Shown here piece after piece: positions 21,715-27,215 of a DNA stretch of 39,481 bases. Position numbers and translations under genes: made by a program. How positions within the stretch are numbered: position 1 is the stretch's first letter; every line of letters begins with the position of its first letter. The DNA lies in IMG/VR virus record IMGVR_UViG_3300036987_000217, positions 1 to 39,481 of that record. One strand, 5' to 3'. The notes under the pieces are model-generated. The model saw only the letters and a list, made by a program, of their open reading frames with translations, ran no database searches and was not told the origin of the DNA. The stretch comes from a virus (lineage: Duplodnaviria > Caudoviricetes).

Positions 21715-22076
21715 CGAATGCTCGCCTCCTCGATTTCGACAATGCGCCCGCGCACGTCAGCAATCTCGTCAATCGTCGCCTGCACCAGGTGCATTGCAGC
21801 CGGTGTCTTTGCCTCGCGTTCCAACTGCGCCCACCGCCTGCGAAGCCCGGCTAGCTCTGCCGTATCCGGCGGAAAATAGATGAGCAGCGGTGCGCCTGGC
21901 TCTTCGTCGACGCGCACCGGTGCGTCGCGTCCTGCAAAGCGGGCGAGGTCATCACGCGGCCGAATTTCCGAAGTCACCAGACTGCCATCGGCGGCAGCCC
22001 TGAACAAAACGCCCGACAGTCCGTCCGGCGCGACGCGCACGAACGGCAATCTATGCTCGCCTAATGCCGATGCCAT
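21711..22076 (-). CDS. Hypothetical protein (121 aa)
   Basis: AGGAGG RBS. Confidence 0.65.
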   Translation of the reverse strand: MASALGEHRLPFVRVAPDGLSGVLFRAAADGSLVTSEIRPRDDLARFAGRDAPVRVDEEPGAPLLIYFPPDTAELAGLRRRWAQLEREAKTPAAMHLVQATIDEIADVRGRIVEIEEASIR

Positions 22077-22085
22077 TTGCGCCTC

Positions 22086-22307
22086 CTATGCCCGCACCGC
22101 GACGTTCACCTGCAGGTCCGTTGTCGGGATGACGGCGCTGACTTCCATCGGCGTGATCGCCGGCAGCGTGAGGCTCAACGCCACTACGCGGGCGCCCTCG
22201 TCGGCCCCATGGTTCTCGATCAGCAGATCCATCGCCGATTGCGCGTCGTCGGTGCTCGTCTCGACGTCGCCAGCGGCGTTGTAGGCAATCCAAATCGTCG
22301 TTTCCAT
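22086..22307 (-). CDS. Small acidic hypothetical protein (73 aa)
   Basis: AAGGAG RBS. Confidence 0.7.
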   Translation of the reverse strand: METTIWIAYNAAGDVETSTDDAQSAMDLLIENHGADEGARVVALSLTLPAITPMEVSAVIPTTDLQVNVAVRA

Positions 22308-22321
22308 CTATCAACTCCTTA

Positions 22322-23203
22322 TCATGCGTCCCGACGTGCAACTCGCTTCATAAACCGCTGTCCCAAGGCGGTGAGCACGGCCCAATCGACGCCTACTGGC
22401 TTCTCGTTAGTAGCCCAACTGTACCCTCTACCCTCCAGTGCGATGAGTCCCTGATTTTTCAGGAGTTCGAACGCGAGTTCATTGTCGGCAAACACGGGAG
22501 CGTACAAGCGCGCATCCACCCAGTGCACCCGGTCCTTGACCGCGCGCGAATAAGCGATGGTGAACTCCATCGGCATGGTGGGATCGACATACTTGCGCAA
22601 CTGCTCAAACACTGACAGATCGCGCAACGGCACCGCCTGCCGCAATAGGTCCTTGATTTCCGGCTCCGCGCTGTAAAAGCGCTCCATCGGAAATGACGTT
22701 AAGTCCGGCGGTCCCTCCGGACGCCATAGCCAACGCAAGACGCCGCACTCACGCGCTGAAAGCTCCGAGAGTAATCGCGAGAACACAACGACCTCGACGT
22801 CATAGTCTTCCGAGGCCGACGCGATCAGCTTTGCCCAAGCCGTGGTGAGAACGTCATCTTCCGCATCTTCTAGCGATGCGCGTTCGAGGATCGGCAATAA
22901 TGCCTTTTGCGGTATGGCGCCGGTCAATGTAGCACCTTCGAGTTCCCGCGTAGCTTTGACCATGATCCTCGATAAGGTCTCGATACGTCTGCTCTGCAGA
23001 CGTCGCCTAAGATCAATGAGCCAGTCATCAACGATTCCGGCAGCGGTAACGATTGGTGCAATCGCACGCAGAAGCGCCTCGGCTTTCTCTCTTGTTACGT
23101 CTTCGGGTTCCGTCGCTTGTACGTGGCGTTCGGATTTGATCGACGCACCGAGTGCTATTTCCACTGACGCGCCGCCGGCCTTTTTTTCCCCCGCGCCCAT
23201 CAT
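22322..23203 (-). CDS. Abi-alpha (DUF4393) family protein
   Basis: IPQKALLPILERASLEDAEDDVLTTAWAKLIASA...FSRLLSELSARECGVL, C-terminal wing LKNQGLI...LTALGQRFM. Confidence 0.78.
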   Translation of the reverse strand: MMGAGEKKAGGASVEIALGASIKSERHVQATEPEDVTREKAEALLRAIAPIVTAAGIVDDWLIDLRRRLQSRRIETLSRIMVKATRELEGATLTGAIPQKALLPILERASLEDAEDDVLTTAWAKLIASASEDYDVEVVVFSRLLSELSARECGVLRWLWRPEGPPDLTSFPMERFYSAEPEIKDLLRQAVPLRDLSVFEQLRKYVDPTMPMEFTIAYSRAVKDRVHWVDARLYAPVFADNELAFELLKNQGLIALEGRGYSWATNEKPVGVDWAVLTALGQRFMKRVARRDA

Positions 23204-23445
23204 TGCTTCCCTTTCCTCGGCTCCCGGCGCCTGGTCGGCGGAACGGGGTTGATCTCTTGCAGCACCGTCAGCACCTCGGGCCGACGGTCCAGCAGTTCGG
23301 CGACGGTTGCCACCGGTCCCGGCACCTTGGCGCCCTCGGCGGTCCAGTTTTCCCCCGACTTCCGGGTTGACCGCAGCAGCAGGGCGAACCCGCCGCGCGA
23401 TAGTCCGAGCCGGTCGAGGATGGCACCGAGCCGCTGGGGGGTCAT
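23200..23445 (-). CDS. XRE-type HTH transcriptional regulator (81 aa)
   Basis: MTPQRLGAILDRLGLSRGGFALLL...NWTAEGAKVPGPVATVAELL. Confidence 0.82.
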   Translation of the reverse strand: MTPQRLGAILDRLGLSRGGFALLLRSTRKSGENWTAEGAKVPGPVATVAELLDRRPEVLTVLQEINPVPPTRRREPRKGKQ

Positions 23446-23475
23446 TTGCGTAATCCCTACTTGTTCGTCCTGGGC

Positions 23476-23504
23476 ACTATGCGAAATATTTACGGTTAAG
23501 ACAA
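23476..23504 (-). promoter_or_regulatory. Sigma70-type promoter for XRE/Abi-alpha operon with operator in spacer
   Basis: TTGTCT-17 bp-CATAGT; operator ATGCGAAATATTTACGGTT (23479-23497). Confidence 0.7.
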
Positions 23505-23514
23505 CGTCTCGTTA

Positions 23515-23543
23515 TTGACTTATGCGTAAATTTTTCGCATTAT
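23515..23543 (+). promoter_or_regulatory. Sigma70-type promoter for hammerhead/DUF1640 transcript with operator in spacer
   Basis: TTGACT-17 bp-CATTAT; palindromic operator ATGCGTAAATTTTTCGCAT (23522-23540). Confidence 0.78.
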
Positions 23544-23634
23544 CGGAAAGCAAAAGACGCGAACCGGCACGGAAGGCCTGACGGATGGCCACCAACCGCG
23601 CCGGGGAGCGGCCCAAAAGGCCGCCAGTGTTCGA

Positions 23635-23697
23635 GACGAAAGCGAAACGGTGCCCAGCGCCGTCGCGGGGTCGCGCCCCGCCTGACGAGCTTTCGTC
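23635..23697 (+). ncRNA. Type II hammerhead ribozyme
   Basis: Stem II GACGAAAGC/GCTTTCGTC (9 bp), GAAA core, stem III CGGTGC-CCA-GCGCCG, GTC cleavage triplet (23662-23664), stem I GCGGGG-TCGCG-CCCCGC, CTGACGA core (23682-23688). Confidence 0.92.
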
Positions 23698-23729
23698 AGC
23701 GTGTTAGGCTCCCATCCATGGAGAAACGT

Positions 23730-23966
23730 ATGTCGATCGACACTCTCGGTTACGTCAAACGGCTCACGGCCGCCGGCGTCGAGCAAGTGCAGGCCGAGGC
23801 GCACGCCGAGGCTTTGCGGGACCACCTGGTGCCGCAGCTTGCAACGAGCCACGACCTTGAAAAGCTTGCGAGCCGATTGGAGGCGACGCTCTGGAAGCAC
23901 TCACTGGCGGTAATCACCAGCGTGCTTGCGGTCGGCTTAGCCCTACTGCGGTTCGGCCAACACTAG
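23730..23966 (+). CDS. DUF1640/CCDC90-like coiled-coil membrane-anchored protein (78 aa)
   Basis: IDTLGYVKRLTAAGVEQVQAEAHAEAL...LATSHDL plus C-terminal TM; GGAG RBS before ATG 23730. Confidence 0.85.
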   Translation: MSIDTLGYVKRLTAAGVEQVQAEAHAEALRDHLVPQLATSHDLEKLASRLEATLWKHSLAVITSVLAVGLALLRFGQH

Positions 23967-23982
23967 GCCAGTCTGACACAGC

Positions 23983-24023
23983 GAGCCCCCGGTGCGTTCG
24001 TGCGCGCCGGGGGCTTTTTCTTT
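23983..24023 (+). terminator. Intrinsic terminator after DUF1640 gene
   Basis: GCCCCCGGTGCG-TTCGTG-CGCGCCGGGGGC-TTTTTCTTT. Confidence 0.85.
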
Positions 24024-24040
24024 GCCCACTGACAGTTCCG

Positions 24041-24081
24041 AAAAACGAAAAGCCCGGCCGGTGTTCGTGCACCAGCCGAGC
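24041..24081 (-). terminator. Minus-strand (antisense) intrinsic terminator
   Basis: - strand GCTCGGCTGGTG-CACGAA-CACCGGCCGGGC-TTTTCGTTTTT; the two + strand mismatches become G-U pairs only on the - strand. Confidence 0.7.
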
Positions 24082-24118
24082 CCTTGCGTGACCGCTCCCA
24101 TCCAAAGGAACCATCACA

Positions 24119-25180
24119 ATGACGATCGATAACATAGGCGGCCGCCTGGCCGCAATCGTGTGCGCCACCGCCCTTGGTGTTGGCGGCACGTCCCTCCTGT
24201 TCGGTGACGTCATCGCCGGCGCCGCCGACTTCACGCAAAAGCACCTGCAGACGATCTGCATCGTCGTCGCGACCACGGGCGCGTGGCTCGCGGTGACGAT
24301 AGCCGCCAAGAAACGGGCACCCATCGCCTTTATCGGCTGGCTGGTGCTCTCACTGTTCGGCACCGGCGTCATTTGCTGGTACTCGCTCGGCCGCCAAACC
24401 GAGGGGCAGTTGATGTCCGCCGACAGTCACGACAAGGCCGCCGAGGAACGCGGCCGGCTCAAAGCGAAGCTCGTCGACGAGGAAAAGGCACGCACCGCCA
24501 AGCGCAACGATGCCGACGCGGTGTGCAAGAAATACGGCCCCGAGCATCGACGATGCCTTGGCGCTCGCGCGGTGGAGGCGGTCTATGCCGATTCCCTCGC
24601 CGGCATCGAGGCACGCCTCAAATCGCAACAGGTGAAGCCGGTCGACGCTTCGGCGGAGGCATTCGGCAACCTGGTCGCCGCGCTCGGCGGCAACCGCGAC
24701 AAGGCGAAGGCCCTGGCGCTGTTGTTCATGCCGTACCTCATCACCGGGCTGTTCGAGTTGGGGTTCACCTGGTCGCTGCACGATGCGTTCCGGCCGGGCA
24801 ATGTGCGGAAAGCGAACATTGCTCCGCTGACCGAGTTGCTGACAGTCCGTCAGCAACTGGCGACGCCGGACAGTCCGGCCGTGCTCCCGAAAAATTCTTC
24901 GGGAGCAACGGACGGCCAGCGTGACGGCGGTGCGCGGACAGTCCGCCCCCAGCCGGACAGTCCGCTGCCCGCCGGACGGTGGTCCGAGGCGCAGACGCTG
25001 GCCTACGTGCGGGCCGAACTCGCCGCCGGCCGGACGGTCCCCATGCAGCAGGTGCTGGTCGGACTGTCGGGCGTCCGCAAGCAGCGGATTTCGGACTGGA
25101 TGAGCGAATGGGAGGCGGACCAACGCATCCCCATGCGCACGCAAGCCGGACGGTGCAAGGTGCTCGTCGCCGCGAACTGA
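24119..25180 (+). CDS. Membrane protein: 3 TM, coiled coil, TM, linker, C-terminal winged-HTH-like domain (353 aa)
   Basis: AAGGA RBS; hydrophobic segments; C-terminal PMQQVLVGLSGVRKQRISDWMSEWEADQRIPMRTQAGRCKVL. Confidence 0.8.
   Translation: MTIDNIGGRLAAIVCATALGVGGTSLLFGDVIAGAADFTQKHLQTICIVVATTGAWLAVTIAAKKRAPIAFIGWLVLSLFGTGVICWYSLGRQTEGQLMSADSHDKAAEERGRLKAKLVDEEKARTAKRNDADAVCKKYGPEHRRCLGARAVEAVYADSLAGIEARLKSQQVKPVDASAEAFGNLVAALGGNRDKAKALALLFMPYLITGLFELGFTWSLHDAFRPGNVRKANIAPLTELLTVRQQLATPDSPAVLPKNSSGATDGQRDGGARTVRPQPDSPLPAGRWSEAQTLAYVRAELAAGRTVPMQQVLVGLSGVRKQRISDWMSEWEADQRIPMRTQAGRCKVLVAAN
24834..25070. repeat. Cluster of CGGAC-N-GTCCG palindromes and two 10-bp inverted repeats inside the membrane-wHTH gene
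   Basis: Exact CGGACAGTCCG at 24867, 24935, 24954; near copies at 24839, 25031, 25060; IRs 24834-24858 and 24882-24907. Confidence 0.85.
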
Positions 25181-25199
25181 TCGAAAAGCCCGAATAGTT

Positions 25200-25234
25200 G
25201 CCCCGGTGCTGGTGCCCCCAGCGCCGGGGCTTTT
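25200..25234 (+). terminator. Intrinsic terminator between convergent genes
   Basis: GCCCCGGTGCTGG-TGCCC-CCAGCGCCGGGGC-TTTT. Confidence 0.8.
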
Positions 25235-25235
25235 A

Positions 25236-26141
25236 CTACACAGGTCGCAATTCCAATGGATCGAGCGCCGCGCCGTGCCGCAGAAGCGCTTTGGCCGACT
25301 TCCACTTCTTCTGTTTAATGACTCGTGCCCCCATCGGAGACAGAGACAGATCGGCGTCAGAAAGCCCCTGTAACACCCCCAGTGACAGCCGCAGCTTGCC
25401 CGTCACCTTCCTTCCGCTGCGATCGATAGCGCCATAGGGGTGCATCTCCTTCTGCGGTCGCCTTGATAGGCCAGGGACCATACGGCGGATGTTCTCCAGT
25501 TCATCCTCGGCCGACCGGTCGACGCCCCGCATTTCGACGGCTAGCGCTGAGCCGATGGGGCGGGTGTGGCGCACCGAGACCTCGTCCAATATCCCGGCGC
25601 GCCACATGGGATTCGGGAACAGCCGACACCAGACATAATCCAGGCCGACCCCGCTCATGCTCGCACGCATCAACGGCAGCACAGTTTTCAGGTGCGCTGA
25701 GGTCAGGCACGGCACCATGATCTCGACGAGATTGGAATAGCGGAAACGATATTTGCGGTTCGCGAGCGTGTGGTACCAACTAACGTAGCTGTCCGGCGTA
25801 AGGCTCGGCTGCATGAGGTCGACGCCGTAGTCGACCATGGCATCGAAAATCCGATTGACCGCCTCGGTAGTCGTCGAGATGTCGTCATCAGGGAGCCAGA
25901 TGCGCTCGTAGTCCAATAGGCGCGGGTGCTCCGTGAACAGCTTGTACAGCCCATCCCATTTTCCACCCCTATGGTCGATACGCCAAGAGTCGTCGTCTCG
26001 GAATATGTCCGTGTCCGACCCATAGTAGCTCACCACCAGATCCCAGTTTCGGGGCGCGCCACCAGAAAGCCATTGCCGGTGCAGGGATTTATCGCCTGCG
26101 CGCACTACCACTAAATTGCTCTTGGTGGCGGGAATGCTCAT
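25236..26141 (-). CDS. DUF707-family (GT-A-like) protein, 301 aa
   Basis: NLVVVRAGDKSLHRQWL...WDLVVSYYG...GGKWDGL...YERIWLPDDDI...QPSL...VEIMVPC...SGVGLDYVW...VRHTRPIG. Confidence 0.82.
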   Translation of the reverse strand: MSIPATKSNLVVVRAGDKSLHRQWLSGGAPRNWDLVVSYYGSDTDIFRDDDSWRIDHRGGKWDGLYKLFTEHPRLLDYERIWLPDDDISTTTEAVNRIFDAMVDYGVDLMQPSLTPDSYVSWYHTLANRKYRFRYSNLVEIMVPCLTSAHLKTVLPLMRASMSGVGLDYVWCRLFPNPMWRAGILDEVSVRHTRPIGSALAVEMRGVDRSAEDELENIRRMVPGLSRRPQKEMHPYGAIDRSGRKVTGKLRLSLGVLQGLSDADLSLSPMGARVIKQKKWKSAKALLRHGAALDPLELRPV

Positions 26142-26540: not shown

Positions 26541-26576
26541 CAGCACTTTGTTTTGTTTAGCCTTTTCCGCCGGCCA

Positions 26577-27215
26577 ATGACGCCCTACGTTCCCGCGGTG
26601 CCCCGCTCCCGCTTCATCACGCCCAGCGCCCCCATCCTGCGCCCCGAGCCCCCAGCGGGCCGCGATTGGCTGCACGAGGTCAAATTCGACGGCTGGCGCG
26701 CGCAGATCCATGTCGAGGGCGCCACCGCGACCATCTACGGCAAGAATGGCGGCGACCTCACCGCACGATTCCGCAGCATCGCCCGCATTGCCGAAACGCT
26801 GCCGTTCAAGTCGGTGGTGCTCGATTCCGAAATCGTGGCGCCGGATGCGTCGGGGCGGCCGGACTTCTACGCCCTGATGCGCGGCGTGCGTGATGGCTGT
26901 TGCGCCTATTGCTTTGACGTCCTGGTATTCAACGGCGTCCCGATGTTCAACGATCCGATAGAGCAGCGCCGGGCGCTGTTGCGCCGGGTGCTCAAGCGCG
27001 AGGCGACAGACACGCTGCGCGTTTCGCACGCGTTCAAGGATGCGGACCGCGTGCTCGCCCATTGCGCCCAACACAGCCTCGAAGGCATCGTCTCGAAGCG
27101 ATGCGGCAGCCGTTACGTGGCCGGCCCCAATCCCGATTGGATCAAGGTCAAGACGGCCGCCTGGCGCGAGGCGAATAAAAGCCGATGGGAGTTGTTCGCT
27201 AGGGTGCGGACCTGA
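26577..27215 (+). CDS. ATP-dependent DNA ligase, LigD-type adenylation domain only
   Basis: Motif I HEVKFDGWR, III VLDSEIV, IIIa FDVL, IV EGIVSKR, V DWIKVK; no OB domain after motif V. Confidence 0.88.
   Translation: MTPYVPAVPRSRFITPSAPILRPEPPAGRDWLHEVKFDGWRAQIHVEGATATIYGKNGGDLTARFRSIARIAETLPFKSVVLDSEIVAPDASGRPDFYALMRGVRDGCCAYCFDVLVFNGVPMFNDPIEQRRALLRRVLKREATDTLRVSHAFKDADRVLAHCAQHSLEGIVSKRCGSRYVAGPNPDWIKVKTAAWREANKSRWELFARVRT

Follow-up and report, generated by a model that had tools for sequence, protein, structure and literature searches.

The 3′ tail of a type II hammerhead motif in the leader of a phage transcript matches the catalytic core of the same motif, and this match is considered to act as a built-in timer and lock that would need no outside factor, a reading to which we assign a probability of roughly 0.45. 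The element lies in a 39,481-nt stretch of a Caudoviricetes virus record (IMG/VR IMGVR_UViG_3300036987_000217), which was analyzed whole and is referred to here as the window. Assignment of the leader element to the type II hammerheads follows from its motif, and it is expected to be active on account of its canonical core. Sequence comparison with other phage hammerheads leads to the conclusion that pairing between core and tail is selected, and that it is the RNA, in the ribozyme strand, on which selection acts.

The terminase, portal, major capsid, and baseplate genes of the 39-kb virus record are on the minus strand; the hammerhead element is on the plus strand, 3′ of a sigma-70-type promoter (23515..23543, plus), divergent from an 81-aa gene (23200..23445, minus), and 5′ of a 78-aa ORF and a terminator. 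One promoter site was found, against a mean of 0.1 in shuffled sequences, and transcription is predicted to start near 23550 on the plus strand; an operator-like imperfect palindrome in the promoter spacer (23522-23540) was spotted by eye. The 81-aa gene shares 42% identity with its positional counterpart in a relative of the window (L100), has no match in Pfam or PHROG, and is likely a DNA-binding regulator of the hammerhead-leader promoter. A second relative (L099) carries at this place a 47-aa gene that is weakly RHH-like (E 0.019, below the cut-off); the divergent regulator therefore looks swappable, with a homologous gene in L100 and an RHH-like replacement in L099. Operator-like repeats at 23478-23494 and 23522-23540 lie over the promoter beside this divergent small gene, and directly behind the gene is a 293-aa ORF (22322-23203, minus) that contains an Abi_alpha domain (Pfam PF14337, E 1.7e-8); the accessory region also encodes a stand-alone ATP-dependent DNA ligase domain (PF01068, 220 aa; 26553-27215, plus). 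The 78-aa ORF (23730..23966, plus), the message of which would begin at the hammerhead cut site, is weakly CCDC90-like (Pfam PF07798, E 1.6e-4, below the cut-off) and matches phrog_17872, of unknown function. An intrinsic terminator-like hairpin follows (23983..24016, plus); it resembles a second long hairpin at 24048-24085 in the same intergenic region, both varying with compensation in L099 and L100, and a 353-aa ORF (24119-25180, plus) lies beyond them. Two DNA runs contained no variant letters over the leader.

All core bases of the hammerhead are canonical, with CUGANGA, GAAA, and GUC (NUH) at a three-way junction; loops cap stems I and III, and stem II is open. The 5′ strand of stem II (23635..23643, plus) leads into a segment placed by RF02276 alignment and by descriptor search (23644..23664, plus), which comprises G12-A13-A14-A15.1 (GAAA, 23644-47), the stem III hairpin, and the GUC triplet (23662-64); cleavage is predicted between 23664 and 23665 on the plus strand. 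Stem I (23665..23681, plus) has 6 bp and the loop I TCGCG (23671-75), and is followed on the same strand by the catalytic core C3-A9, CTGACGA (23682..23688; N7 is C23686), the 3′ strand of the 9-bp stem II (23689..23697), and the tail (23698..23705); the pair G10.1-C11.1 is present in the window. Alignment to the whole Rfam model RF02276 scores 24.1 bits (E 0.1) and does not reach the gathering score of 37, which is a database cut-off and not a mechanistic feature; scanning the whole window at the gathering score returned no Rfam match, and the descriptor search of the window found this one hammerhead only.

The core doubles as the 5′ arm of a rival hairpin, termed OFF here, with the hammerhead fold termed ON. 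CTGACGA (23682-23688) pairs with the core-masking arm TCGTCAG (23693..23699, plus) through 7 Watson-Crick pairs across a 4-nt loop (GCTT, 23689-92), at −8.5 kcal/mol. A first-pass annotation made from the sequence had reported this perfect 7-bp complement, and its letters and coordinates proved exact; it had also held that the hairpin involves the stem II 3′ strand as well as the core and so excludes the active fold, which is correct. Perfect complements at a loop of 3-13 nt are found for 95 of the 39,451 7-mers of the window (0.24%), and the a-priori chance of one for CTGACGA is about 7e-4. Five of the seven masking bases, TCGTC, are at the same time the distal half of stem II: the distal GACGA of the stem II 5′ strand duplicates the GACGA of the core, and 23693-97 in the tail have two possible partners, 23635-39 (ON, in the 9-bp stem II) and the core (OFF). 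As the ON partner of the tail is a 5-bp copy of the core, the toggle is explicit at this locus. The remaining two bases, A23698 and G23699, also fit a pseudoknot between loop I and the tail; all seven masking bases thus have a role in the ON state, due to which the single locus is not decisive and comparison must decide. A second OFF hairpin (23680-87/23702-09), favored in some folds of the window, was considered and rejected; it contains 3 G-U pairs and is broken in L100.

Close homologues were sought in viral contigs with the 78-aa ORF as query, which gave three loci, two of them true relatives (L099 and L100), and both carry the hammerhead. All 7 pairs of the OFF hairpin are intact in 3 of 3 homologues, with changes confined to the 4-nt loop. 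Stem II differs between the homologues at 23689, 23691, and 23692, with compensation at two of these positions; its proximal pairs show compensatory changes in both L099 and L100, and 23693-97 are invariant. This local invariance is weak evidence, as there are n = 3 homologues and the whole stretch 23660-23730 is highly conserved. L100 has U-U at stem II 10.1-11.1 and has lost the pair, a variant known for type II hammerheads (PMC3088659). Further searches added no member to the family: blastn of annotated phages for close homologues gave 1 chance match, the 353-aa ORF as query gave no further close homologue, and searches with two DNA patterns yielded no member of the family of the window besides L099 and L100 (structural hammerheads being present in 16/42 and 2/36 loci). 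In 48 more distant relatives of the ORF (metagenomes, 8/64 parts; genomes, 59/64) neither the hammerhead nor the 11-nt repeat described below was found (0/48 for each).

A different pseudoknot, between loop I and CGCGA at 23558-62 near the 5′ end, had been put forward in the first-pass annotation and is abandoned here; the complement is perfect in the window only (1 of 3 homologues), and CGCGA is commonplace, occurring in 343 of 1,314 90-nt windows of the sequence (26%). The pseudoknot of type II hammerheads joins loop I with the 3′ tail and not with the 5′ end (PMC3088659), and the candidate partner here is AGCG (23698-23701), which forms 3 pairs with loop I in the window and 4 in each of L099 and L100, where loop I ends in U. 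Such a tertiary contact is frequent in type II hammerheads, though not universal. The CGCG of the abandoned motif belongs to the 5′ arm (23556..23561, plus) of P0, a predicted leader-closing helix whose 3′ arm (23700-05) overlaps AGCG within the tail; P0 has 6/6 pairs in the window, L099, and L100 (3/6 G-U), with two one-sided changes in L100. L011, L040, and L060 combine a similar loop with a similar tail. In L344, L348, L353, L365, and L422 a core-like UGAC is found inside loop I, so that the tail can pick either an activating pseudoknot or the core.

These pairings bear on one alternative, that the OFF hairpin is a coincidence of this locus in which TCGTC is merely stem II and AG merely the start of the pseudoknot strand. 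The ON-state role of all 7 bases is in keeping with it, as are the loop I pairs with AGCG, Watson-Crick at all 4 positions in L099 and L100, and the recurrence of similar loop and tail in L011, L040, and L060; however, coincidence leaves unexplained why stem II reproduces the core in its distal half, which is fixed while the proximal pairs covary, and why the same arm occurs in unrelated hammerheads that have a 4-bp stem II and no pseudoknot, and it is considered distinctly improbable.

The comparison across phage hammerheads relied on two pattern scans of viral contigs in which the tail was unspecified, the second covering 5/64 parts; together they gave 266 structural type II hammerheads in 205/230 loci, of which 234 were unique, in 121 clusters, and 117 clusters were scored after dropping 4 with tails shorter than 40 nt. 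A helix anchored at C3 with at least 6 pairs is present in 13/117 clusters, against a mean of 2.6 and a maximum of 9 in 300 shuffles of the tails and 4/117 in a downstream control; with 7 pairs it is present in 4/117, against a mean of 0.4 and a maximum of 4 in shuffles. Permuting the cores gives a mean of 2.7 and a maximum of 12 (400 permutations) versus 14 observed, and the most enriched 5-mer is GTCAG (10 versus 1.1). Pairing of 5 bp in any register is not enriched (25 versus 16.9, maximum 26; downstream control 26).

A further scan specified TCAG only, leaving free the base that faces N7, and returned 80 structural hits (124 loci, 41 clusters, 32 parts); a control with the reversed 4-mer returned 49 (121 loci, 53 parts), making TCAG about 2.5-fold commoner. 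N7 is catalytically free in the hammerhead core. Among the 39 scorable of the 41 clusters, which were cut at 78-80% similarity and are not fully independent, C7 faces G in 17/18 and A in 1, and U7 faces A in 9, G in 5, and another base in 7, a covariation between N7 and its partner with a Fisher value of 5.7e-4 among purines. Double changes are also seen within clusters (L317 versus L339, L328 versus L360) and between two ribozymes of phage L271. In the pooled set (170 clusters, 49 with TCAG) the covariation is found in clusters without a pseudoknot (35 clusters, p 1.5e-4) and in those below 50% G+C (24 clusters, p 1.6e-4); it is not significant at 50% G+C or more (25 clusters, p 0.33) or with a pseudoknot (14 clusters, p 1.0). 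The G+C of the flanks is the same for C7 and U7, and a G+C confound is rejected for the clusters below 50% G+C.

The strand on which the mismatches fall is informative as well. G8 faces C or U in 33/40; G-U is tolerated on the ribozyme strand (U7:G 9, G8:U 10), A-C is almost absent (1/20), and the helix can be extended past C3 in 6/40 only, meaning that it ends flush against stem I. An inverted repeat acting at the DNA level, either as a protein site or as the product of template switching, would suit the perfect or near-perfect 16-bp palindromes of L044, L074, and L088; it is nevertheless the least probable of the alternatives by far, given a spacer of variable length, mismatches that are G-U on the ribozyme strand, and a symmetry that ends at C3. 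An upstream GAC, a possible ON partner of the tail, is found in 17/40 hammerheads with the tail versus 23/121 (p 0.005), this being 1 of 5 patterns tried, the others giving p 0.007-0.23. Some class members are elaborate: on the single contig of L250/L251, some 2 kb contain five type II hammerheads, all of them with the start of the core repeated upstream and with a core-complementary tail. L271:882 and L271:1237 display an A-C opposition at 11.1/10.1, and an 8-bp core complement with covariation from one copy to the other; directly after the tail comes a further core-like heptamer.

Folding was modeled as secondary structure only, with the pseudoknot and tertiary contacts left out. The minimal precursor of the window, ending at 23699, is predicted to be ON at 0.68 and OFF at 0.01, and the cut 3′ product is predicted to be OFF at 0.83; this predicted dominance of the OFF hairpin in the cleaved 3′ product and not in the minimal precursor is a point that the first-pass annotation had missed. 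For a transcript from the predicted start, ON is predicted at 0.5-0.7 for 3′ ends between 23694 and 23702; OFF then reaches 0.6-0.7 at 23704-08, as P0 forms, and is 0.25-0.4 from there up to 23730. Without the P0 arm, OFF is predicted to stay near 0.1 in the window; in these predictions P0 promotes OFF only in the window, coexisting with ON in L099, while L100 is mostly OFF with or without it (0.75 in the full leader). A tertiary bonus of 2 kcal/mol returns ON to 0.74-0.90, and the throttle at this locus may therefore be mild. Addition of 23698-99 changes the predicted association of the two cleavage products from −8.1 to −4.9 kcal/mol, and with P0 it returns to −8.7. Among the precursors of 40 class members, OFF is predicted to be favored by more than 2 kcal/mol in 26 and ON to be favored in 8; OFF exceeds 0.5 in 38/40 of the 3′ products.

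It had been suggested earlier that the ribozyme may be switchable, by co-transcriptional timing or by a trans factor. This suggestion is supported in part: the OFF hairpin is conserved in 3/3 homologues, enriched in the class, and covarying, and timing is plausible from the predicted folds. The 5′ pseudoknot is not supported, and there is no indication of a trans factor.

Given the anatomy of the element, its selection, and the predicted order and fractions of its folds, the timer and lock would work as follows. The active ON fold would form first, while the 3′ end of the nascent RNA runs through 23694-23702; the emerging 23700-05 would then pair with the 5′ end of the transcript, removing the pseudoknot partner and allowing OFF to rise, and the tail would compete for the core, slowing cutting and lowering the fraction cut. 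Once cutting has occurred, the core of the 3′ product would be sealed by the hairpin, and the grip of stem II on the 5′ product would be weaker by about 3 kcal/mol. Full-length hammerheads re-ligate, and a hidden core would block this. Two stacked hairpins, stem I and the OFF hairpin, would be left at the 5′-OH end of the message of the small gene; a 5′-OH hairpin end resists nucleases. Cut and uncut leader would be expected in a fixed ratio, with cutting irreversible and no external factor needed. In yeast, helices in competition exchanged rapidly when 9 bp or shorter, and a ribozyme was inhibited by competitors placed downstream (PMC2817708); although this is a different system, such rapid exchange makes invasion of the 9-bp stem II plausible.

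Ranking close behind the timer and lock is a role confined to the product, which we regard as possible but somewhat doubtful: the precursor would be ON and cut constitutively, and the hairpin would be selected for what follows the cut, whether release of the 5′ product, prevention of re-ligation, or shaping or protection of the 5′-OH message. The contrast between 0.01 OFF in the minimal precursor and 0.83 in the product fits this, as do the 38/40 class products above 0.5, the recurrence of elements with which the tail could pair in the ON state (an upstream GAC, or loop I), and the small tertiary bonus that suffices to restore ON. It does not account for the 26/40 class precursors in which OFF is favored by more than 2 kcal/mol, most of which have a 4-bp stem II that should dissociate unaided, or for the full leader of L100 with its predicted 0.75 OFF.

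A regulated switch, in which a protein, an antisense RNA, or a ribosome occupies the 5′ end of the leader or the stem II 5′ strand and tips the RNA OFF or ON, is unlikely. Near-equal ON and OFF in the full leader would suit such a device, as would a conserved structured 5′ domain and the stop codon close upstream in most class members (33/40); however, that adjacency is unchanged in hammerheads lacking the tail (87/117), the family of the window has no conserved upstream ORF, and no factor has been identified. A 40-codon frame with a Shine-Dalgarno-like site (23585-23707) crosses the ribozyme; a 43-codon frame in L099 shares its stop, and the frame is interrupted in L100. Translation coupling was accordingly rejected, stop codons being equally close without the tail and the uORF not being conserved; as the locus has no conserved upstream gene, ribosome coupling cannot be the general explanation.

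The structured 5′ domain (23563..23625, plus), predicted to consist of a bulged stem with a hairpin, a GGAG linker, and a second hairpin, has the same predicted architecture in 3/3 homologues despite sequence change, and would stay on a released 115-nt 5′ product; Rfam gave no match for 23563-23625. Downstream, an 11-nt repeat precedes both ribosome-binding sites: copy 1 (23708-18, plus) is predicted to form a 4-bp hairpin over the Shine-Dalgarno at 23720-23 (feature span 23708..23723), and copy 2 (24094..24104, plus) lies 5′ of the ribosome-binding site of the 353-aa ORF. There are exactly two copies per record, identical within each record; L099 and L100 carry the repeat at the same places, and both copies change together in L100. 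Leader bases complementary to the repeat are predicted to be exposed in the 5′ domain. An antisense role of the 5′ product is a possible lead that cofolding does not support, binding being no better than with shuffled sequences in 6/6 tests (18-99 of 100 shuffles equal or better; kissing loops are outside the model), and the leader loop of L100 fits the non-cognate repeat better. A much broader reading, which we hold to be speculative and rather unlikely, is that natural strand-displacement switches make up a widespread subclass of the type II hammerheads of phages, in which the tail strand chooses between the core (OFF) and a core mimic upstream or in loop I (ON); here the 5′ end of the transcript would decide, and the cut would set the amount of small-gene message freed and release a structured 115-nt RNA regulating both ribosome-binding sites that carry the 11-nt repeat.

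A selected hairpin aimed at the catalytic core offers a concrete handle, as one free base (N7) breaks or restores the pairing; furthermore, activity measured on constructs cut short at stem II may differ from that of the natural RNA. The roles and control of bacterial and phage hammerheads are called largely open in reviews (PMC6765202, PMC6155905). Type II hammerheads in prophages are already known; the core-complementary tail appears to be new, as we found no description of it in searches of full-text literature, most subscription papers lying outside that search. It is not mentioned in the portions of the main text of PMC3088659 that were covered, the supplements of which gave no match to the tail letters and the alignment of which is not searchable, so that a note there is possible; nor is it mentioned in the available portions of PMC6765202, PMC6155905, PMC8782182, PMC13481778, PMC5737381, and PMC2864571. 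The last of these lists the c4 antisense RNA and c4-a1b1 motifs of P1-like phages, and no c4 family model is among the 6 Rfam matches at E up to 10 in positions 22000-26000.

Several known systems are nonetheless instructive. The c4 RNA of P1-like phages is a structured phage leader processed from a longer transcript, as the leader in the window would be, and in both cases a short repeat lies before two ribosome-binding sites; the exposed leader bases complementary to the repeat are likewise reminiscent of c4 antisense control. In viroids and satellite RNAs, hammerheads can refold into another, inactive structure, which likewise ties up strands of the ribozyme, either once cleavage has taken place or in place of it; the competing structure there belongs to a circular genome that replicates, whereas the window has a local 7-bp hairpin on the core in the message of a DNA phage. 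The closest relatives are the type II hammerheads described by Perreault et al. 2011 (PMC3088659; RF02276), which share with the window an open stem II, a canonical core, a GUC site, a phage context upstream of a small gene, and a candidate pseudoknot between loop I and the 3′ tail. Relative to the hammerheads as described in that paper, the window differs in its 9-bp stem II, the distal half of which copies the core, in its core-complementary tail, in its promoter-proximal non-coding leader, and in being a single copy in a 39-kb fragment, with a score of 24.1 versus 37 bits, the latter a database threshold. Competition itself has a precedent in the engineered ribozyme-competitor mRNAs of Mahen et al. 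2010 (PMC2817708), in which a ribozyme helix faces competition, as transcription proceeds, from a helix next to it on the downstream side; those constructs are artificial and were studied in yeast, whereas the competitor in the window is natural and pairs with the catalytic core.
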